This document shows, piece after piece, positions 10,054-64,000 of a DNA stretch of 64,000 bases. The position numbers were made by a program, and so were the translations under genes. The DNA comes from Octopus sinensis (Eukaryota): NCBI RefSeq assembly GCF_006345805.1, contig NC_043002.1:15438001-15502000 (forward strand), written 5' to 3'. The first letter of the stretch is position 1, and every line of letters begins with the position of its first letter. The notes under the pieces are model-generated. The model was not told the DNA's origin, ran no database searches, and worked only from the letters and a program-made list of their open reading frames with translations.

Positions 10054-10118
10054 CTCTCTCTATATATATATGTATATATATATATTATATATATATATAT
10101 TATATATTATACTAATTA

Positions 10119-10320
10119 ATTAAGGGTTCAGCAACGATTTGCCTCACCACATACCGAATTTAGAAATAGCAGTCAAAAAGTTTTGGCTATTCTTTCTACT
10201 TAAAAGGGCGATCCCAGTAAAACCAAAGCACTTAAAAAACAAACGACGCAGGCAAAAGAGAAAGAAATGACGGAAATCATTCTATATTAAGTTACCTACG
10301 GACGTACGTTTCGGAATCAA

Positions 10321-10322
<2 letters not shown>
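10119..10322 (-). mobile_element. Small Penelope-like remnant with 3' half of a hammerhead motif
   Basis: attaagggttcagcaacgatttgcctcaccacataccgaatttagaaatagcagtcaa aligns to 62181-62240. Minus strand reads CCGAAACGTACGTC at ~10301-10314. Confidence 0.55.
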
Positions 10323-11737: not shown

Positions 11738-12780
11738 TTTGCATAGAACGGCGAAATAACCCACTGTAGTTGCAAAACGTAAAACTCTAAGTCATAGAGA
11801 TCACTACAACACTTTGGTTTAAAAACATTTAAAAAAATATATATATATAAATATATACATATACACAGTAATTTTCATTATCGCCGAAACGCACATGGTG
11901 CAAAAATAACTGAATCAAGTTATCTCCTGCAAGAAAGAAAAAAGAAGCATCTCTCCTGAAAAAAAATCCCGTAAACCAAAAAAAAAAAAAAATAATAATC
12001 CAGACCACATTGTTGGATTAAGTATCAATTTCATCTATTTCATATTTTATTTATTATTCTATTTTATCTTTCACTTAGGCCCACATCTTAGTTAAAGTTG
12101 CGATCGTCATTTTGTTTGTTTACATTTTCAATAACTGTTCTCGATATAATAATTTTCCAGATACTCTATCTTCTAATTAGCCTTAAGATTAAATTAAATA
12201 ACGTTTAATATTGATACCGTCAAATTAGCCTTAGGATTAAATTAAATAACGTTTAATAACGTTTAATAACGTTTTCAGCAGAGAAAGACGTGATTGCCTT
12301 TGCTCTGTGAAAAAGTTTGCATAGAACGGCGAAATAACCCACTGTAGTTGCAAAACGTAAAACTCTAAGTCATAGAGATCACTACAACACTTTGGTTTAA
12401 AAACATTTAAAAAAATATATATATATAAATATATACATATACACAGTAATTTTCATTATCGCCGAAACGCACATGGTGCAAAAATAACTGAATCAAGTTA
12501 TCTCCTGCAAGAAAGAAAAAAGAAGCATCTCTCCTGAAAAAAATCCCGTAAACCAAAAAAAAATAATTCAGACCACATTGTTGGATTAAGTATCAATTTC
12601 ATCTATTTCATATTTTTTTATTATTCTATTTTATCTTTCACTTAGGCCCACATCTTAGTTAAAGTTGCGATCGTCATTTTGTTGTTTACATTTTCAATAA
12701 CTGTTCTCGATATAATAATTTTCCAGATACTCTATCTTCTAATTAGCCTTAAGATTAAATTAAATAACGTTTAATATTGT
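11738..12780 (+). repeat. Direct duplication of the LINE 5' region (offset 578 bp)
   Basis: gcatagaacggcgaaataacccactg... at 11741 and 12319, near-identical for ~470 bp. Confidence 0.93.
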
Positions 12781-13670
12781 TAATATTGTTAATAATTATT
12801 GTTAATTAGCCTTAAGATTAAATAAATAACGTTTAATATTGATACACGTCAATCCTTAGGATTAAATTAAATAACGTTCAATATTGTTTAATATTGTTAA
12901 TAAATTGTTAATTAGCCTTAAGATTAAATTAAATAACGTTTAATATTAAAAACGTCTAATTAGCCTTAGGATTAAATTAAATAACGTTAATATTGTTAAA
13001 ATTATTTTGTAATTAGCCTTAGGATTAAATTAAATAACGTTTAACATTGTTTAATATTGTTAATAATTACTGTTAATTAGCCTTAAGATTAAATTAAATA
13101 ACGTTTAATATTGTTTTAATATTGTTAATAAATCTTCAGATACTCTATCTTCTAATTAGGCTTAAGATTAAATTAAAAACGGTTAATATACCCACACTCT
13201 AATATAATATTAACATTGCTAATATATTTTCAGATACTCTATCTCCTGATTAGCCTTAAGATTAAATAACGTTTTTATCCACACTCTAATATAATATTAA
13301 TATTGCTAATATATTTTCAGATACTCTATCTTCTAATTAGCCTTAAGATTAAATTAAATAACGTTTAATATTAATAACGTCTAATTAGCCTTAAGATTAA
13401 ATTAAATAACGGTTAATATTGCTTAATATTATATATATAATTTTCAGATACTCGTCTATAATTAGCCTTAAGATTAAATTAATAACGTTTTTAATAATTA
13501 CCCACACTCTAATATAATATTAATATTGCTAATACATTTTCAGATACTCTATCCCCTAATTAGCCTTAAGATTAAATAACGTTTTTACCCAAATAACGTT
13601 TTTACACAAACTTTAATATTGTTAATATTCTTTTTCAAGTACTCTATCTTCTAATTAGCCTTAATATCTT
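12724..13670 (+). repeat. Modular minisatellite array upstream of ORF1
   Basis: About 14 copies of (taattag)cctta[a/g]gattaaattaaataacgttt, plus 2 more at 12158-12275. Interleaved with modules cagatactctatcttc, cccacactctaatataatatt and aatattgtt. Confidence 0.92.
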
Positions 13671-13725: not shown

Positions 13726-14632
13726 ATGTCCAGAGCATGGAGACGTGACGAGCTGGATTTATTCGTACGAGCATGGGAGTGCGCCGGCGGAGATAGCCCT
13801 AGGAGGTGATTGCGGCTGCGCTGAAGAGCAGAGGCTACAAGAGGACAGCGGCTCAGATGGAGCGAAAGAGACAGGAATTCGTGCGCTCATATGCGCTTGT
13901 ACGGTCGCACATTGGCGCACTTGATGCCATCTTTGAGAACGAGCGGAGCAAAGATGGCAAGAATGGAGACGATGAAAGAAGTCACCCCCACCTGGTGGAC
14001 GCCCGGGAGGAGGTTTTGAATGAGAAACCTGCCCGGGAAGTGAACCCAGGTCCAAGTTCTCCAACCGGCAGCAAGGGCCATGGAGACGGAGAACCCGGTG
14101 AAGAGGTAGAGGGAGGAAGAAGAACTAAAAGAAGGACTGGAAGAGCTAAGGGAAAAGAAAAAGCTCAAGCAGGACCAAAGAGTGAAACAACCAGAAATAG
14201 AAGTGGAACCGCAAAGGATGGAACCAAACAGCGCACACGGGTGTGTATGTTCTACTGAGAGGTTCCTGCTGGCATGGAAAGGAAGGTGCAGGCTGCCGCT
14301 TTGCACATCGGGGACCCTGCCACAGAGACACGAGGCAGATGGACAAACCATCAACACAAAGAAAAGGGATGGACCACGCACCACCTGCCCCAAAACGGAG
14401 GTACGCAGATGTTGTGCGCGCCACAAACAGCCAACATGATGTCGAAAGAGCAGCTGCTGAGCAACAATCTTTTTTGTGCATGGCACAAAAGATTGTACAG
14501 CAGCTGACCTGGCTTCATCAAACCCAAGCCCGCAGGTGGGACTACCCACTATATACCAGACCACCACAGCAAACAGACACAGGATGGACACCGCCGGCAA
14601 CAACGTACACCTCACCTCGATACTCCTACTGA
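13726..14632 (+). pseudogene. LINE ORF1 (Myb/trihelix-like N-terminus, basic linker, CCCH finger), two apparent 1-nt frameshifts
   Basis: MSRAWRRDELDLFVRAWECAGGDS/EVIAAALKSRGYKRTAAQMERKRQEFVRSY, then RVCMFY/LRGSCWHGKEGAGCRFAH when frames are joined at ~13800 and ~14255. Confidence 0.75.
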
Positions 14633-17563
14633 ACATCAGAGGACTGCAAACACTCAGTAACAGGACAAAGATCCCGTTCCTGAGAGACTTTGTTGCATGC
14701 AATCAAGCCTTATGCATAGCACTTACAGAAACGCACCTGAAACCGGACATAGCAGATGCGGAGTTACACATACCACAGTATGCTGTACTACGGACCGACA
14801 GGAAAGAAAGGAGTCATGGAGGTGTTGCTATGTACATCCGTGAGGACCTCACACCCCAGGTCCTCTTGTCATACTCAAACTCGGTGTGTGACACACTAAT
14901 TGTACATATGGCAACTTGATGTAGTTGTGTGTGCTACATATCGCCCTCCAGATGCCCCAAGCCATGTGGGCAAGTTTGAAGACTGCCTTATAAAAATAGA
15001 AGAAATTCTAACCACATTAGAACAACACATAGGTGTGCTTCTTATGGGAGACTTCAATCTGCCCAATGTCAGATGGCCCGAGGGCCTTTCTCTCCCAGGA
15101 ATGACAAGATGTGAACGAGGACAGGCGAGGTCCCTCCTGAACCTCATCAACACCCTGTACATGGAGCAGGTAATACTCCAACCAACCAGGGCAGGTAACA
15201 CACTGGATCTCTGCTTCACAAATGACATGGATCTCATCCATAATGTGAAAGTGACACCGACACTACTCTCGGATCACAACATGATAGAGCTGACCATGTA
15301 CGGGCCAAAAGAGAGCACGGACATGCAGCCTACAAGAAACCCTCAAAATCTTTCCAGCTTGAACTACCATAAGGCAAACTGGAAACAAATTGAGAAAGAG
15401 ATCCTCAAACAAAACTGGCCTAAATGTCTCTCCTCGCCAGACATCGACGTGAAACTTCAACAATTCATGTCTGTAATGCAAGCCATATGCTACAAATGTG
15501 TCCCAGAGAGAAAGGCCACTGTACACAAGAACAAAATCCCCAGAGAGAGGAAAATTTTAATGAGACGGCGTACGAAATTTTCAAATCGCCTAATTGAAAG
15601 CAGTGAAAAGTCCCGCCTAAAAATAAAACTGTTGGAAATCGAAAAATGTCTGCAACTCTCCCATGAAAAAGAAAGAGCAGACAAAGAAGCCTGGGCTATA
15701 GAAAACATAAAATCTAACCCCAGAGCTTTCTACAGGTATGCCAAAGAAACAGCTACAGTGCACTGTAGAATAGGGCCACTCCTCGAAAAGGATGGCACAC
15801 TTACAGGAAAACCAATGAGGGTAAGTGAAATACTGAATGAGCAATTCAAGAGTGTTTTCACTCCACCCCTTGGGCATCTCCAAATCACCAACCAACCACT
15901 GACTTTTTACCACTGCAGATATAAAATCAGAGGCGGCGACGATAGATTACATCGATATAAAGGAAGACGATGTAACCAAGGCTATAGATGAAATGAAAAC
16001 AGACTCAGCTACTGGCCCCGATGGATTCCCGGCAATCCTCCTAAAAGCATGTAAGAGAGTCCTAGCAAGACCACTGCAGTTCCTCTTTCAGAGCTTCCTT
16101 GCAGCTGGCAAACTTCCAGGAAAACTGAAGGAAGGTAAAATATGCCCCATTCATAAAGGAGGTAGCAGAGCGGAAGCCAAGAACTATAGACCTATCTCTC
16201 TGACCTCACACATCAGCAAGGTCATGGAACGAATAGTCAGAAGGAAGCTGATCACCTTCCTTGAAGAGAATGACTTGCTGCCCGACACCCAACATGGTTT
16301 CCGACCAGGGAGAAGCTGTTTAACTCAGCTCCTACAACACTATGACTGGGTGCTGAAACGGCTGCTCAACCACTCAAATGTGGAAGTGATATATCTCGAC
16401 TTTGCAAAGGCCTTTGATAAAGTCGATCATGGAATGATATGTCACAAACTGCGTGATCTCAACATAGTTGGAAAACTGGGAGAATGGCTTCATGACTTTC
16501 TGAAGGATAGAAGTCAGGTGGTAGTAGCCAATGGGGCCACCTCCATTAACACACAAATAGTGAGCGGTGTTCCGCAGGGCACTGTTCTGGGACCACTACT
16601 GTTCATAATGGCCCTCTCAGACATGCCCTCAGCCACGCAGAGAGCCACGATCACAAGTTATGCAGATGATACAAAAGTTTCACAGGCAATACAGAACCCT
16701 GAGGACACTAAACACCTGCAATGTGAGCTGGACGAAATATACAAGTGGGCTGAAAAGAATAGCATGCAGTTCAATGCTGGAAAGTTTCAAGCTTTATACT
16801 ATCAGCATGCAAAACTGAATGCAATACCCAATGAATACACTGGACCCGGAGGGATTGCAATCCCAGAGGCACAATCAGTGCGTGACCTGGGTATTCACAT
16901 GAGTGATGACGCGACCTTTCATGTACATGTTGCTAAACTGACAATGAAATGTAGACGGCTGGCTGGATGGATTCTTAGAACCTTTAGAACAAGAGAACAA
17001 GAAACCATGATGGTCCTCTGGAAGACACTTGTCCTAAGCCACTTTGACTATTGCTCTCAACTATGGTCACCATCCAGTGTCAAGTTGATCACAGAACTTG
17101 AGGCGACCCAACGAAGCTACACAAAGCCTCTATGCAGAATGTAAGCTACTGGGAAAGACTCAAGAGATTAAAATTATATTCCCTGGAGCGTAGGCGGGAA
17201 AGATATGCCATAATATACATCTGGAAGATCCTGGAGGGAAGTGTCCTGAACTTTGGCATCGAGAGTTACGCAAATGCCAGAACTGGGCGCCACTGCGTGG
17301 TGCCTAGGACTCCAAACTTGCCATCAAGATGTAGGACAAGATTCTGTGATAGCCTGGGCTTCCGAGCCCACAGCTCTTCAATATCCTCCCGAAGAACCTG
17401 AGAGACCTGCATGGGGTGGATACAGATGTATTCTAAATTGAAGCTGGATCTCTTCCTGTCAGGTGTCCCAGATGAACCAACTTCACGGCAGGAGGGGCAG
17501 ATGAGGGCAGCTGCATCGAACTCTCTCATGCACCAAATAGCAGTTGCTAGAAAGCCTCCATGA
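14584..17563 (+). pseudogene. LINE ORF2: AP endonuclease + reverse transcriptase, about four frameshifts
   Basis: APE motifs LLNIRGL, ALTETHL, GGVAMY, GDFNLP, SDHNMI. RT motifs KNYRPISL, QHGFRPGRSC, YLDFAKAFDKV, SGVPQGTVLGPLLF, YADD. C-terminal LYSLERRRER. Confidence 0.95.
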
Positions 17564-20280: not shown

Positions 20281-20660
20281 AGAGAAATCGGATTTTACAT
20301 ATTTTACATCTCTATAACCCAGAAACGCATATATAGTTAATCAAAGCCGAATGGATTCGTTATTTTTTTTTCCTCTGAGTTGAGAGTATTATTGTCTGGA
20401 AGATATCTTATGATACTGAAATTGTAGTTAACTGCTATTTCTAAATTTCTGTATGTGGTGAAGCGATTTTTGTTGAACCCTAATTAAAATTATGCTTATA
20501 ATCATACAATTTTTGTATAAGGTCACCGATAATGGTTCTTTTAACATACCGAACTACTTGGTAAAATTATTAATTATTAATTGATTAATTAATTTTACTC
20601 TTTATTATTATTATTATAATTATTATTATTATTATTATTATTATATTATTATTATTATCA

Positions 20661-23600
20661 TTCAGTAGTTTTATTTTTATGTCGTGCTTTCACTTCACTA
20701 CCGAGCGCAGCTCTGTGTGCCGTAGGCACGTGCTGTGATTTGTTGTGATGCTCTGATGGTTATTGTCTGGAAAGTGTTCTGCGTAGGATGTGTGCAGTGC
20801 CTAGTATTTGTCTGAATATATTTTTATCATGCCTAATGCACCTATTATGATAGGAATTGTTTCTGCTTTTAGATTCCACATTCTGGTTACCTCTATTTCC
20901 AGGTCTTTGTATTTTGAAAGCTTCTCCATTTCTTTTAAAGACACGTTGTCATCCGCTGGTATTGATACATCAATTAGAAAACATTTATTTTCTTCATAAT
21001 CTCTGACAACTATATCTGTTCTGTTGGCCTTAATTTCTCTATCTGTGTGTATTGGCATATCCCAGAGTATGGTTGCTTCCTCGTTTTCTGTGACCTTTTC
21101 TGGTGTATGCCTATACCATCTTTTTTCTGTTGTTATTCCATAATGTTGGCATAGCTTCCAGGTTATATAGGTCCCAACTCTGTCGTGTCTGTGAATATAT
21201 TCCTCCCTAGCCAGGGCTGGGCAGCGAGAGATAATATGATTTATTGTTTCTTGTCCATCTCCACATATTCTGCAGTTAATTGTTATATTTCTTTTCATTA
21301 CATGTCTTTGGTAATTTCTGGTGGAGAGGCTTTGGTCTTGTGCTGCAATTAAAAATCCGTCTGTCTCTGCTTTGAGTCCTAAGCTTCTCAACCATTGTTG
21401 GGATTTTTCTTTGTCTATTTCTTTTGCATTTAGTTTAGTCCAGTATTTGCCATGAAGGGGCTTTTCTTGCCATCGTTTTATCATGGTTCGTTGCTGTACT
21501 ATTTTTAGTTTGGATTTCATTTGTTTTATAGCTTTTGTTGTTTCTTCTTCTTCTTCTTCTTCTTCTTCTTCTTCTTCTTCTTCTTCTTCTTCTTCTTCTT
21601 CTTCTTCTTCTTCTTCTTCTTCTTCTTCTTCTTCTTCTTCTTCTTCTTCTTCATATTTGTTAGGTAGTATGATTTCTTGTTTGTATTTGTCAGCTTCCTT
21701 AAATACTGAGAATCCTTTCTTTTATTTGCTCATGTTTTTCCGCTATTTGTATCAGTTTTCCTTCCTTCTGAAGTAGATATTTTTACAGTCCTGTGGTGGT
21801 TATTTTATAGTAGTTTTCCAGCTGTATAAGGCCTCTACCACCATCTATACGTTGTATATATAGCCTTTCTATGTCAGATTTTGGGTGATGCATCCTAGAT
21901 CCTGTCATTATTTTTCTTGTATTCCTATCTATTTTGGTCAGTTCATTTAGTGTCCAGTTAAGGACATTGTAGCTGTAACTTATAATTGGGACGGCTAAAG
22001 TGTTGATACCTATTATCTTGTTTTTAGCATTGAGCTCTGTTTTCAGTATTGATCTGACTCGTCGATAATATTCTTTTTTCATTTTCTCTTTCATTTGTGT
22101 GTGTTGTGTCTTATCTAGTTCATGGATTCCTAAGTATTTGTAAGTTTGGCTTTGGTCTAATTCTTTTATTTCATTGGTTTTATCTAGTGTGATGTTGATA
22201 CTCTTAATCAGTTTTCCTCTTTTCTTGGTTACTTTGGCGTATTTCTCTAATCCAAATTTCATATCTATTTCTTTGGTAAATCCATGAACTGTCTTTACTA
22301 GTGTTTCCAGCTGTTTGTCATTTGCAGCGTATAGTTTTAGGTCTTCCATATATAAAAGGTAGCTGATCTTTTTGCCGTAACATTTATATCCGCATCCAGT
22401 TCTGTTTAGCATATCAGATAGAAGTGACAGTACCAAGCAGAAAAAGAGGGGAGAGAACGTATCTCCCTGGAATATTCCTCTTCTAATGGGGGTGGCTTTG
22501 GTTTTCACAAGTCCCTATTTTTTGGGGAGCTGTAGCACTGTTTGCCATGTACTTTATATTTGTCCTATGTACTTTATATTTGTCCTATGTACTTTATATT
22601 TGTTGGTGCAACTTTCTTAATGGCTAGTGTTTCGAGAATCCATGTGTGCGGGATGCTATCAAACGCCTTTTTGTAGTCGATCCAATCCATACTGAGGTAT
22701 TTCTTCTTTCTGTGGCTGTCTTCAGTTATGGCTTTATTGATCATTATTTGATCTTTACAACCATCTGAGCCTTTGCGGCATCCTTTCTGCTCTTCTGGAA
22801 ACAGGTTGTTTTCGTCCAGGTGCTTGTTCAATCTTTGCGATATTACTGCCGTAAATGCTTTGTACATTGTAGGGAGACAGGTCATAGGTCTGTAGCTTTC
22901 TGGTTTTGCTGTCTCATTTGATTTGGGAATTAAGATGGTTTTCCCCTTCGTGAGCCATTCAGGTATTGTCTCTGGCTCTTCCAGTATGTTGTTAAAGTTT
23001 TCAGCCAGCTTTTTGTGCATTCCTGTTAGATATTTCAACCAGAAGTTGGGGATCTTGTCATGCCCAGGTGCCTTCCAGTTGCTTAGCCTTTGCAGTGCAT
23101 GGGTGACCTCTTCCGTTGTTATGGGGGTCCAAAGTTGTTCAGATGCTGAGTTTGTTGTTTTAATACTCCTTTTTTTTGGTTGTTCGTTCGCCGACCATAT
23201 TTCTCTCCAGAATTCTTCCACTTCTTCTGCCGTTGGTGCTGCAGTGATTTCTATTATATTTTTACCAAGTTCTTGGTAGAACTTTTTGGAGTTTGGAGTT
23301 GAACAGTTTGATTTGTTCGAAGAAACGTTGGCGTTTCTCGTACCGGCGGATCCTTTGTGCTTTGGCAAGGATATCTTGCTTCAGCTTTTCTTTTATCTGA
23401 GGTAAATCTTTTTCTGTGGTGTTGTATTTGCGAAGTATTTTTGTTTTCTTTTTGTTGCTCAGTAGCGTTGATTGTCTACTGATTTCATTAAGAATCGACA
23501 GATCTTTTCTCATCTTTAGTATTTTGTTTTGGATGTTATTTATCCACCGGGTTTGTTTGGGTTGTGTTACTCCTGTTTGAATGGGTTTGAGTGTGTATCC

Positions 23601-59689: not shown

Positions 59690-60420
59690 GCGAGTATATA
59701 TAACATACAGGAAATAGTACTACTAGGCACCGCGCACAGCCTACTTAGAGATATGTTGACAGCAAACGGAGACTTCTAACCTATGAGTGACATCAAAATG
59801 CATTACTTGCCCAGAAGAAAGGGTGGGAGATTTTCATCAGTTGCCAGGATTGTATCGAAACAGAGAAAAACTGCTTTGGGTGGTATATAAAATCTGTGGA
59901 GCTACGGGGAAGGCCGGCGTCATCAAAACTGGAAATTGTGTAACCGAAGGAGAAATTTAAGCAACAAATGGCCAAATGAAGACAAACGTGTATTGAAAAA
60001 AGAGAAAATGTACGATCAGTTTGCAAGAGATAAGGACGCCAAGACAGATACAGAAGACGGGTGGCTATGGATGAGGAGGAGTGACCTGAAGAGAGGGATA
60101 AATGCACTCACATGCGCAGCTCAGAAACAAGCGTTAAGGATCAATCATATGAAGTGCAGAATTGATAACGCTACATAGAGCAACAAATGCAGAATATGTG
60201 GTGAGACGGGTGAAATGGTAGTTCACATCGTCGGCGGAAGCTCGACATTGGCACAACGCGAATACAAAAGACTCCTTGACAATGTGGAAAAAATGATCCA
60301 TTTGGAGCTCTGTTGAATTCTCGGACTATGAAATGCAAAGACGTTGTATGAAGTGCAGACGTTGACTCCAGAAGGAGTCATCGAAAATGAGAATTGCAAA
60401 ATGCTGTCGCATTGAATCAC
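59690..60420 (+). pseudogene. Decayed R4/Dong-type fragments
   Basis: IQEIVLLGTAHSL, WLWMRRSDLKRGINALTCAAQKQALR, KCRICGETGEMVVHIV and PEGVIENENCK. Confidence 0.75.
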
Positions 60421-60556
60421 TTGGAAGCATCAACACTGAACTACTAACATGGCTGAAAAAGATCCGTGTAAGTTAGGAGGTAGAAGCAAGTCGCACCTTA
60501 GTTTGCTGTCTGTAAACAGCTGACACTCTCCCTCATACTCAACAAAGTAAGCTAAC

Positions 60557-60557
<1 letters not shown>

Positions 60558-60592
<35 letters not shown>

Positions 60593-60657
60593 CGATAATA
60601 ATAATAATAATAATAACAACACCGATAATAATAATAATAATAATAATAACAACAACG

Positions 60658-60688
<31 letters not shown>

Positions 60689-60953
60689 CAACGATAATAA
60701 TAATCATAATAATAATAACAACGATAATAATAATAATAATAATAATAACAACAACAACATTATTAATAATAATAATAATAACAACAACATTATTAATAAT
60801 AATAATAATAACAACACCATTATTAATAATAATAATAACAACAACAACAACATTATTAATAATAATAATAATAACAACATTATTAATAATAATAATAATA
60901 ACAACAACATTATTAATAATAATAATAATAACAACAACAACAACAACAACATT

Positions 60954-60988
<35 letters not shown>

Positions 60989-60996
60989 CAACAATA
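60558..60996. repeat. Higher-order AAT/AAC/ATT triplet minisatellite
   Basis: ~27-36 bp units (aat)n(aac)n-gat, switching to (aat)n(aac)n-attatt. Confidence 0.9.
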
Positions 60997-61512
60997 GCGG
61001 CCGGAGGTGTTCTTCGCTGGGCTGACCAGTCAGCAGTGAATAACACAGAAACACTTATACAAACCTGCAGAATAGCTGAAAAATAGCTTTAAAACACTGG
61101 AATATCTGCAATCTCCTGTGAATAGTTAAATGTTTCCCCTGAAATAAGGTTAGAAACTTACATACCTACATTTTTCTCTGGAATAAAAAAGAAACTATCA
61201 ACTTCAAAATCTTCAACTTTTTAATTGTAAGAACACTAGAGTTTTCACTGTTCAGACGTACAAACAATATTCTTTAGAAAATTTAAATTTCAAATATCTA
61301 AAATTTTTTCGAAAATGTAAGCATACTACGGATAGCAACAAATTCAAAGCACGATAAAATTATAAGAGATAAGCACCTGCAAATGTATACGAACTGTACA
61401 ATTACGAAAAATAAACCACAGCAAATCTAAGAAACCTAATGAAAATGAAATTAAAACAAAAGAAGAAAAATCAATAAAACGTCAGATTCAAGATGTTGAA
61501 CAGTATATATAT

Positions 61513-61569
<57 letters not shown>

Positions 61570-61570
<1 letters not shown>

Positions 61571-62180
61571 TGGTATTATTAAAATACCATCACAGGTGGT
61601 AAGCGAATTATTAGCCGTAAAGGCAAATTAATAAAATATATAAATACAATATTAGATATGTACATATATACATAAGGCTACTCAGTGAGTACTTATATCG
61701 CTCATGATAGAAGTCAAAAAATACTTCTGCAGCACCGAAAAGTCACAAATCTATTACAGACAGGATAGGAAAAAAATATCAGTCAACAATAATAATGTCT
61801 TACCTTAAATGGGTCAGAACAAGTAAATGCTGGTCAACTCGGTACCGGTTTCGAAATTTAGCGTCACGTAGACGCGTGATTTCTCATCAGCCGAAGTCCG
61901 CCATCTAAATAACTACTAACATCCCCCCATCATGCCTGCGAAAGTTCGTTTGAATTGACCAAGCACCGTACGAACAAACGAAATGCGTAAAATCATTTAT
62001 AAATATATATAGGGATGGTATTATTAAAATACGATCACAAGTGGTAAGAGAATTATGAGCCGTACAGACAAATTAAAGAAATATATATACATACAATATT
62101 AGATACGTACATGTATACATAAGAGTACTAAATGAGTACCTATATCTCTCATGATAGAAGTAAAAAAATACTTCTGTACC
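61570..62180. repeat. ~160 bp diverged direct repeat (61570-61730 and 62015-62178), each copy adjoining a hammerhead-bearing segment
   Basis: atggtattattaaaatac...ctcatgatagaagt.aaaaaatacttctg occurs in both copies. Confidence 0.85.
61838..61895 (-). ncRNA. Minimal type I hammerhead ribozyme motif
   Basis: Minus strand UUCGG-CUGAUGA-GAAAU...AUUUC-GAAA-CCGG-UA^CCGAG. All core nucleotides present, stem I 5 bp, stem II 5+ bp, palindromic stem III ACCGGU. Confidence 0.85.
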
Positions 62181-62349
62181 ATTAAGGGTTTAGCAAAAAG
62201 TTGCTTCACCACATACCGAAAATTTAGAAATACCAGTCAAGACCGACTAATTCCATTAACTAGAAATATAACTCCACTGACAAGAATACGTGTAACTCAC
62301 GTAGGCAAACAAGAAGATAAATAACGAAAATAACCAGTCATTTGATTAA

Positions 62350-62405
62350 TCATGTACGCGTTTCGGGATTAGAATTGTAAAATTCACTTCCACTCATCAG
62401 CATGA
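62350..62405 (-). ncRNA. Minimal type I hammerhead ribozyme motif
   Basis: Minus strand UCAUG-CUGAUGA-GUGGA..GAAUU(UUAC)AAUUC..UCCC-GAAA-CGCG-UA^CAUGA. Intact core, perfect 5-bp stem I, palindromic stem III ACGCGU. Confidence 0.85.
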
Positions 62406-62469
62406 GAGTATGCAAATCAAAAGCGGAAAGCAGTACTCACATAGTAAGTAAATGTAGCATGCTGGTACA

Positions 62470-62950
62470 TAAAGAATGCAAAAAAAGACATGACAATCTA
62501 AGGAGAGCAACAAACTGGAAGTTATGTAGATAACTAGGATTTGAACATGCTGATAAATGGAAGGAATTCAAGTTATGAGATTTTAACTTTCAGACTGACA
62601 GTCTAATAGCAGCTAGAAGGCCTGATTTGGTAGGAGTAGACAAAGAGAATAGAAAGACAAAGAGAATATGAAATGCCATTGAATTGACTTTACAGTCCCA
62701 AATGATTAAAAAGGTAATATGAGAAATAGCTGTTGAATTAGAGAGACTAGGGAAACTGCGGATAAAATGTAACTCATCAGTTATAAGTGCACTGGGAACT
62801 ATCCCTATAGACATGAGCAGATGGATAGAGGAAATAGGCATAAAATCCAGTTTAGAACAATTGCGGGAAACAGGTTCAATAGTGACAGCTAGGATAATTA
62901 GGTTGGTTCTTGGTATCTCAGTTTACTTGTTGTAACCTAATAGAAGGGTT
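62470..62950 (+). pseudogene. Decayed R4/Dong-type RLE C-terminus
   Basis: KRHDNLRRATNWKLC, FQTDSLIAARRPDLVGVDKENRK and VISALGTIP. Confidence 0.75.
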
Positions 62951-64000
62951 ATTCGCATCTAAGGCAACTTGTAGCCAGATGTTACGATGGTTTTGTTTTC
63001 CAACATTCTAATCTGTAGCATGTATATGATAGACAATAATAGTAACGCGTGCTAAACATGTAAAACAAAAATATTTCTCTTATGTATTCCAAAAAGTGAT
63101 GCATTCTTCACTTCAGTTGTTCGAGATTGTTGTCAGTGGGTAGTTTAACTTAATGGTAGAATATTCAGCCATGTCTGACGGGTGCTGGTTCCAGTCACGT
63201 GGTTATTTATTGAGAACTTTTCTTTTCGGTCTTATAAGGGTAATAATACCCACTTGATTTAGTTTTCACGGCTGTAATGCGTTAGAAATCTTCCGTTCAT
63301 CTCTATATAAAAACGATACAAGTTGGACGATTCAATAAAAAAATGAACTTTTTCTTTACATATTTTTGTTGCATCTCTCTCTCTCTCTCTCTCTCGATAT
63401 TTGTTTTCCGTGAAAGTTTGGCGCGCTGTTAGTTGGGGCATTTGAATTATAACGTCGGATGTAATCAATTGAACCACACGCGTATTTATCGTTATGGTAA
63501 AATCTGGCGTGTGATTGAGTGGATTTCATCCAGATAGTTTTGGCTGACGAGCTACAAATGGATTTTTTTGTAAGTAAAATTACATTTAATTCATTAATAG
63601 CGAAACAATTGTCCCAAAATAATCTGTATTTTGTTATTTTTTATTTGCCCTGTCCGTGTGAGCTAACAATCGTACTGACTTTCATGGGAAACATGTATTT
63701 TCGTGGTTGAAACCTTTTGGATTAACTGGTGCTAGAGTGAGCCATATAGTGACCACTCTCTTATATTTTTTATATATATATATATAATATATATATATTA
63801 TATATATATATATATATATTATTATATATATATATATATATATATATGTTACCTATATATGTAGGTATCTCTCTATCTATCTATATTTACACATACATAT
63901 ATGTAAAGAGTGTGTATGCTTTTGATGAAACGTTGAATATTGTACGGATGTCAGAGAAACGTATTGATGAGAGATGACCACTGTCAAAACTCCGTGCAAG

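Follow-up and report, generated by a model that had tools for sequence, protein, structure and literature searches.

The two hammerhead ribozymes located 512 nt apart on the minus strand of the stretch of Octopus sinensis DNA analyzed here (64,000 nucleotides in its entirety; referred to as the window) stem from two different retroelement families, which we designate A and B. We consider it probable that the locus is composed of a truncated copy of A joined to a truncated copy of the unrelated family B, most likely through a later insertion of B at the TA boundary where A ends; the co-oriented hammerhead pair would then be a by-product of this event. The genuine units measure about 550 nt in A and 447 nt in B, and the 512-nt piece would be a one-off hybrid and not a working unit.

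Affiliation of the two hammerheads

The sequence-only reading had reported two co-oriented type I hammerheads on the minus strand with GUA sites and a spacing of 512 nt, and all of these features were found again in the sequence and by a descriptor scan (Table 1). In the core of HH1, CUGAUGA begins at position 62400 and is followed by the GAAA half; its stem III is the palindrome ACGCGU, its stem I (UCAUG/CAUGA) has 5 bp, and its stem II has 4 bp and one bulge plus an inner hairpin. The core of HH2 starts at 61890, with GAAAU/AUUUC as stem II, the palindrome ACCGGU as stem III, and a 5-bp stem I (UUCGG/CCGAG) that includes one G-U pair and could be lengthened. The same descriptor found a mean of 0.02 motifs in dinucleotide shuffles of the window (n = 200), and none of the 200 shuffled windows contained one with a stem II of at least 3 bp and a palindromic stem III. 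Strict hammerheads occurred four times per 232 kb in 70 loci that had not been picked for them, and not at all in 20 shuffles. A chance origin of the motifs is ruled out by these shuffles of the window and of the unselected loci. A check of the window against Rfam, which the earlier reading had suggested, yielded no hammerhead among 141 matches at E values up to 1, nearly all of which are microsatellite noise; the identity of HH1 and HH2 therefore rests on the descriptor and on conservation within their families. Taken at the sequence level, this supports an assignment of HH1 and HH2 to the Penelope-type hammerheads with palindromic stem III, residing in non-coding, ribozyme-bearing retroelement families. 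The earlier proposal of such an origin is thereby borne out, though for two families and not for one.

Table 1. Positions of the ribozymes, repeat family copies, and adjoining sequences in the window
Feature	Position	Strand	Remarks
HH1, type I hammerhead, family A	62350..62405	-	Descriptor scan; GUA site with predicted cut at 62355/62354
Family A copy, 225 bp of ~550-bp tandem unit	62181..62405	-	29 other loci, 84-92% identity
HH2, type I hammerhead, family B	61837..61897	-	Descriptor scan; GUA site with predicted cut at 61843/61842
Family B copy, 5'-truncated, ~1.4 units of 447-bp period	61570..62180	-	Best other copies 93-94% identical
Upstream copy of B terminal redundancy	62017..62180	-	Boundary set 447 bp from downstream copy
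Downstream copy of B terminal redundancy	61570..61733	-	Ends at commonest B 3' end
(TA)n tail, usual 3' neighbor of families A and B	61504..61571	.	Compared ends
Family C copy with third hammerhead	63398..63765	+	Stem III ACAAUUGU; core 63544; GUC site with predicted cut at 63613/63614
Family A relative, diverged, flanked by TA runs	10117..10322	-	Only 3' half of core (GAAACGTACGTC)
Decayed family A relative, core incomplete	20301..20482	+	Sequence/profile comparison
GTGAGT, putative splice-donor-like site	62295..62300	-	54 nt after HH1 cut
TTTCGCAG, putative splice-acceptor-like site	61936..61944	-	Upstream of HH2; CAG conserved in listed B loci
GTAAGA, putative donor-like site	61803	-	Family B
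Non-LTR retrotransposon remnant, 5'-truncated, broken	62406..62970	+	Zinc knuckle and C-terminal region; 1510 candidates in genome

The affiliation of the hammerheads was deduced from searches of the genome (G000; 2.72 Gb). The HH1 region gave 1190 candidates, of which the best 40 were scored and 29 other loci were fetched, and the HH2 region gave 345 candidates, again with the best 40 scored; the loci studied are best matches to the window copies and not random members of their families. Both A and B consist of a tandem unit with one hammerhead per unit. The match to A ends at or before 62181 in the other fetched A loci (29/29), with the exception of L013, in which a low-identity match runs on into TA-rich sequence past this position. 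These loci extend about 330 bp upstream, where most of them continue, and about 130 bp downstream of the A portion present in the window; they run into A sequence on both sides, and B sequence was found next to A in none of the 29 other A loci. None of 48 other matches to a junction-spanning query covered both sides (best 40 of 1452 candidates scored). A and B are no more alike than expected from block shuffling, their score being reached by 28 and 11 of 200 shuffled sequences, and profiles gave no cross matches. Exact-pattern searches of the whole genome recovered 32 A cores and 82 B cores (reversed controls: 0 each), and genome coordinate lists place only the window's pair within 1 kb of each other.

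The suggestion that the pair forms one retrozyme-like unit able to yield a 512-nt RNA could consequently not be upheld: HH1 belongs to A, HH2 to B, the junction is unique among the scored matches, and by the junction query and the exact-core counts the pair is single-copy. The 512 nt between the predicted cuts are made up of 174 nt of A and 338 nt of B. Among the listed pieces from contigs of two presumed RNA runs (X15, X17), none bridges the A-B junction; A-, B-, and C-like pieces occur there at 90% likeness, those of A and B with several differences, as expected of paralogues. A DNA contig (X7) spans 62376-62481 with three differences and 30 letters on the A side, one fewer than the bridging rule demands, and none of the listed DNA contigs bridges 62181.

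Two further elements of the sequence-only reading hold in part. The repeat of about 160 bp that it had placed behind each hammerhead is real, but it is confined to family B and does not form part of what follows HH1 in its own family: it is the overlap, or terminal redundancy, of a B copy 1.4 units long, and its two copies (62176-61995 versus 61729-61550) are 86% identical. The sister sequence reported at 10119-10322 is likewise present (about 10117-10322), yet its kinship is with the unit containing HH1, and without the CUGAUGA half of the core it is no ribozyme. Together, three pieces of family A lie within the 64-kb window.

The A copy of the window is truncated at its 5' end within stem I and terminates at its 3' end with CCCTTAAT, the commonest end of this family. 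Its tandem period of about 550 bp can be read from L026, a dimer in which two ribozymes with altered cores are 555 bp apart, and from L015, which has a terminal redundancy of about 548 bp. The B period is 434-454 bp in eight loci. Two exact B cores lie 426 bp apart in L060, the only one among the 82 cores with a second exact core one period away, and in L043 the second core has decayed. In family B, about 15 nt following the cut (in the window, 61842-61828, minus strand) are complementary to a stretch about 110-120 nt ahead of the cut (61965-61950, minus strand); this complementarity would tether both ends of a cut monomer. The loci also revealed at least six more hammerhead families; their stem III is palindromic too, but they differ in their stems and show no relation to A, B, or C (L032, L050, L052, L128, L130, L139, L161, L169, and L172).

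Relationship of the families to animal retrozymes and Penelope-like elements

Animal non-LTR retrozymes have been described as non-coding tandem units with type I hammerheads, circles of which are expressed in coral, mussel, and axolotl (PMC7229834), and a recent preprint proposes their derivation from the pseudo-LTRs of Penelope-like elements (PLEs) (Li, Clavereau and Pollet, 2026; 10.64898/2026.07.22.740005). Judged by their sequences, A, B, and C fit as additional members of this known group. They resemble the retrozymes portrayed in these two sources in their short non-coding tandem units with one type I hammerhead each (PMC7229834; 10.64898/2026.07.22.740005), in their occurrence as monomers, dimers, and multimers in a genome that also harbors coding PLEs, and in a low GC content (30-34% in the monomers) combined with natural monomers that are predicted to be strongly self-paired as circles. 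With 447-555 bp, their units reach or exceed the 150-450 bp of the first description (Cervera and de la Pena, 2020), and they lie within the 51-972 bp given in the preprint. An active retrozyme is described as having two consecutive units of one repeat, each with a complete ribozyme. The tandem in the window is a mixture of A and B and so departs from this rule, whereas same-family pairs of complete ribozymes are found elsewhere for B (L060) and for C (many arrays). No frame of at least 130 aa is present over 61570-62405, and no element-borne coding frame is attached to A or B in 60 loci inspected with 1.5-kb flanks. In the part of the literature covered by our search, there is no account of families A, B, and C, or of mixed-family tandems.

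The ribozymes of the three families share with the pseudo-LTR hammerheads of PLEs, as these have been described, a long stem II, a short stem I, and a small palindromic stem III (Cervera and De la Pena, 2014; PMC4209133), a predicted use as dimers, many families per genome, and mostly dispersed single motifs (PMC4209133). The splice-acceptor-like site of family C lies beside stem I, as reported for Penelope of Drosophila virilis (PMC4209133). Unlike PLE pseudo-LTR hammerheads, A, B, and C have no attached ORF. A GTRAG motif follows the cut at a distance of 35-55 nt in 25/28 A, 26/32 B, and 9/10 C ribozyme copies, which are not independent of each other, against a background of 0.065 per 45-nt window. 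In B and C, the core is preceded by acceptor-like CAG sites. From these motifs, the RNAs of A, B, and C may be subject to splicing; an exact-pattern search of the genome found no intron-less copies of B or of C, and a spliced joint was not observed in RNA. Should the splice-like sites be real, they would constitute a second hallmark tying retrozymes to PLE pseudo-LTRs.

Nearly all 3' ends of A, B, and C run into a TA-rich microsatellite, and each family has two clusters of ends. Counted in nucleotides after the cut, these are at about 170-200 (13/28) and 255-305 (13/28) for A, at about 205-215 (7/31) and about 290 (21/31) for B, and at about 160-200 (9/17) and 290-310 (8/17) for C, with the reservation that some of the loci are segmental duplicates or overlapping fetches; the A end at about 170-200 nt is usually followed by TA. 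Of 23 A loci, 5 carry an inverted piece directly at the 5' end, as do 10 of 29 B loci, and such pieces are frequent in C. Endonuclease-bearing PLEs are described as leaving partial tandems and inverted 5'-truncated copies with a bias toward (TA)n (Craig et al., 2021; PMC8557442), and an Anolis PLE was reported to start reverse transcription internally at two sites and to cleave AT-rich DNA, its ribozyme needing the protein to cleave (PMC11167929). In their partial tandems, inverted 5' copies, (TA)n targets, and two internal 3' ends, A, B, and C are akin to Neptune, Naiad, and the non-autonomous MRC1 as depicted in these accounts (PMC8557442; Frangieh et al., 2024; PMC11167929); however, their two ends are about 80-130 nt apart, versus the 30-40-bp tail described.

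By analogy with published retrozymes, tandem copies would be transcribed, and matching ribozymes, working in pairs, would release monomers that probably become circular. A Penelope-like protein with RT and GIY-YIG domains, provided in trans, would nick (TA)n; reverse transcription would start at either of two AU-rich sites within the RNA (170-210 nt or so and about 290 nt past the cut), and the presumed enzyme would copy more than one unit, giving the partial tandems and inverted 5' pieces that are observed in the genome.

Family C came to our attention through a third, intact hammerhead in the window (63544-63613, plus strand) that is absent from the sequence-only reading. Its query gave 927 candidates, and the best 40 scored contained 142 matches, mostly 98-100% identical. 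C forms 534-bp arrays of up to eight units with inverted heads and TA ends (L074-L092, L123, L124, and L132), and all six frames of its monomer are closed. A distant relationship to A extends over about 330 nt after the cut, a score reached in 1 of 200 block shuffles. In 26 monomers from eight arrays, substitutions average 0.43% within versus 1.21% between arrays, and there are variants common to all units of an array; this pattern fits copying from one circular template, and local amplification fits it too. Apart from such array-wide variants, two C arrays, L132 (G000:C2) and L078 (G000:C11), each show a variant that returns after three units (units 1 and 4; units 2 and 5), which would suit a trimeric template, but the numbers are small, and an assembly error or local duplication is possible. 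C is a young retrozyme family, and a better experimental target than the flagged pair. So far, a mobilizer of animal retrozymes has only been proposed; the octopus genome holds young C copies together with intact RT/GIY-YIG ORFs that share the same TA targeting, so that the proposed rolling-circle reverse transcription of circular RNA becomes directly testable.

Coding Penelope-like elements and the search for a parent

Intact ORFs of 775-781 aa with RT and GIY-YIG domains are present in the genome, and the elements containing them also end in (TA)n. The coding families examined display the order RT, Cys-rich linker, GIY-YIG and were labeled Neptune-type on this basis (order as in PMC8557442). 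The sequence-only reading had called for a search for the partner Penelope RT; coding RT/GIY-YIG elements are indeed there, but the three families are without homology to A or B. The latter result was obtained by profile comparisons of A and B with the three coding families in 78 loci, in which no coding parent was found, and the mobilizer of A and B is therefore one that we infer. A weak score of A against a coding family (z of 5.1) was dismissed as AT-rich noise on profile comparison. One coding family shares GAAACCGGTAC with HH2, which is too short to count. The three coding families carry other ribozyme-like motifs, two of which resemble the U3-A8 core variant.

One of these families (L123-L127 and relatives) is a young Neptune-type element with an intact 781-aa RT and GIY-YIG ORF, and an upstream ORF of up to 479 aa that has no Pfam match. 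Close to the 3' end of this element lies a putative hammerhead of the U3-A8 variant (TTGATAA ... GAAACATGT), whose stem I is poor. The third family (L149, L153, L155, and L171) contains a hammerhead-like motif of the U3-A8 type (TTGAAAA GGTC ... GACC GAAACCGGTA) about 70 nt from the TA tail, at a distance of about 800-900 nt from the preceding endonuclease match; it has the same stem III and GUA site as HH2.

In view of the presence of such elements, A and B might be nothing else than the pseudo-LTR ends of coding PLEs, so strongly 5'-truncated that the ORF hardly ever shows. This was the case that the sequence-only reading had put forward as speaking against a retrozyme family, and we regard it as very improbable. 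It would accommodate the finding that most A and B copies comprise 1 to 1.5 units, with only the L060 core paired among the exact B cores, and pseudo-LTRs are also characterized by splice-like sites, conserved here, and by a pattern of two ends; moreover, the reading for attached frames covered 60 loci with 1.5-kb flanks only. However, copies extending past one unit continue head to tail into the same unit and not into an ORF (L026, L015, L043, L060, and the eight B loci with the 434-454-bp period), no coding frame is attached in the 60 loci, A and B lack homology to the three coding families, and in the related family C as many as eight units follow one another in pure arrays.

Origin and surroundings of the A-B junction

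The later insertion of B at the TA boundary of A is favored by the sequence that follows the B copy. Other A copies continue after CCCTTAAT with TATATTTAT (10 of 24 loci) or with TA runs; the end of B in the window is the only one among 23 B ends to be followed by ATTTATATA. These letters after B resemble a displaced end of A, as would be expected had B inserted at the TA boundary there. Nesting in TA tails occurs elsewhere as well: a C-like element lies ahead of B in L034, a decayed A lies ahead of B in L037, C lies beside A in L005, and B and C sit in the tails of coding Penelope-like elements (L139 and L132, respectively). Pieces of A are located within 1.5 kb in 3/29 other B loci versus 1/41 control loci, and, with three A pieces in the window itself, a strong enrichment is not needed to explain the encounter. 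Under uniform placement, the 32 and 82 cores lead one to expect only about 0.001 pairs of an intact A with an intact B, so that an argument from chance has to pool all hammerhead families. Extrapolated from just four matches, a rough estimate is that the genome contains tens of thousands of hammerheads and some hundreds of co-oriented chance neighbors less than 600 bp apart. The flagged pair itself is ordinary in this light, as stacked Penelope-type hammerheads are to be expected in a genome so rich in them.

The joint itself has a 1-nt overlap and no TA between A and B, neither a target-site duplication nor an empty site was found at the window locus, and, in 20 loci representing 11 copies of the right-hand remnant, the sequence upstream matched the left flank (61000-61503) neither as DNA nor as protein; these observations count against the insertion reading and leave its order of events presumptive. 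Private changes number 13/225 in A (5.8%) and 27/620 in B (4.4%), which does not separate their ages, and this similar decay also fits a single event. A less probable, though by no means negligible, course would be one insertion in which a Penelope-like RT primed at (TA)n, copied B RNA, jumped to A RNA, and copied through HH1 before the product was joined to the chromosome; the jump would have hit the preferred internal start site of A, and the hybrid would record two retrozyme RNAs sharing one enzyme. The joint lacking TA, the like decay of both parts with their intact cores, and the internal RT start without homology described for an Anolis PLE protein, for which a dimer is predicted (PMC11167929), are all in keeping with such a jump. 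A second joint of an A end with a short piece of B, separated by 10 letters, is present in contigs assembled from two runs that belong to separate studies (X1, X7), but its short side of only 27 letters makes it weak, it equally fits repeated insertion at the end of A, and its exact pattern is not found in G000. Against a single insertion also stand the ATTTATA after B, with its likeness to the displaced end of A, and those loci in which nesting has left the TA in place. An extended form of the same idea, which we hold to be doubtful, has the locus recording an RT switch between two retrozymes, with a hybrid that is bounded by two ribozymes and whose 512-nt circle could not be recleaved, and has family C, intron-bearing and young, still spreading through an intact Neptune-type element that turns single circular templates into inserted arrays. 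If true, template switching between retrozymes would be a route to the birth of new retrozyme families. We adhere to the later insertion of B as the preferred explanation.

Whichever way the pair arose, our structure predictions bear on the 512-nt RNA that it was thought to release. In the published model, matching tandem ribozymes pair via stem III and exchange stem I, and dimer use with a palindromic stem III has been described for PLE ribozymes (PMC4209133, PMC6765202). The caveat of the sequence-only reading that the two stems I are mismatched proved well-founded: HH1 with HH2 has predicted probabilities of 0.0 each for a trans stem I and a trans stem III. Since they are unable to form a double hammerhead, a 512-nt RNA would need read-through transcription and monomer cleavage, trans dimers, or help from a protein. 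The HH2 homodimer with short flanks is predicted as a double hammerhead (-44.0 versus -36.6 kcal/mol for two monomers), the values being 0.21 and 0.04 with 22-nt flanks; as the outcome shifts with flank length, the dimer models are soft. HH1 has lost the upstream 330 bp of A and is preceded instead by retrotransposon sequence, with a predicted CUCAU/AUGAG hairpin over the core; a transcript through HH1 would have to start upstream, in foreign sequence. For stem I, the models give HH1 a probability of 0.16 in isolation; in context, the values are 0.0 (HH1) and 0.15 (HH2), and family A copies span 0.0 to 0.99. As circles, the natural monomers have MFE z scores of -5.1 (A), -4.0 (B), and -5.7 (C), and the 512-mer one of -2.2 (40 shuffles each). 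On the strength of these models, release of the 512-nt RNA is possible, efficient release is unlikely, and the hybrid RNA is probably made rarely or never.

It is against these predictions that the notion of a functional unit, in which both ribozymes cut a read-through transcript and the released 512-nt RNA circularizes and can be mobilized, has to be measured. Both cores and stems are intact in the window, as opposed to an intact ribozyme in 14/30 and 22/30 of the best-matching A and B loci, respectively. A 512-mer circle would not rebuild a ribozyme, its arms GACUUCGG and CAUGAUUA being unpaired, and would be stable once made, and hammerheads with a 2-bp stem III can cleave in part as monomers, with 22% in 1 h reported for an axolotl motif (PMC7229834). 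Nevertheless, the A-B pair is single-copy and no heterodimer is predicted, HH1 has a new flank predicted to pair with its core in place of its own upstream 330 bp, stem I probabilities are low, and only one of nine predicted retrozyme dimers cleaved in a recent test described in the preprint (10.64898/2026.07.22.740005). We therefore deem a functional 512-nt unit highly unlikely.

On its right-hand side, the A copy adjoins the broken retrotransposon remnant (Table 1) head to head at its 5' end; this remnant is not part of the ribozyme elements. We take it to be R4/Dong-like, and at the protein level it is 28% identical to the element with an RT at 20801-23380. On the left-hand side, an AT-rich flank (60997-61503) follows right after an (ATA)n array (60559-60996), at which a C-terminal LINE-type remnant (60003-60560, plus strand) ends. 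Farther away, the window contains broken LINE-type retrotransposons at 13800-17144 (plus strand; endonuclease and RT match) and 20801-23380 (minus strand; RT and zinc-binding matches), and an AT-rich minisatellite at 12738-13371 with periods of 53, 64, 87, and 107.
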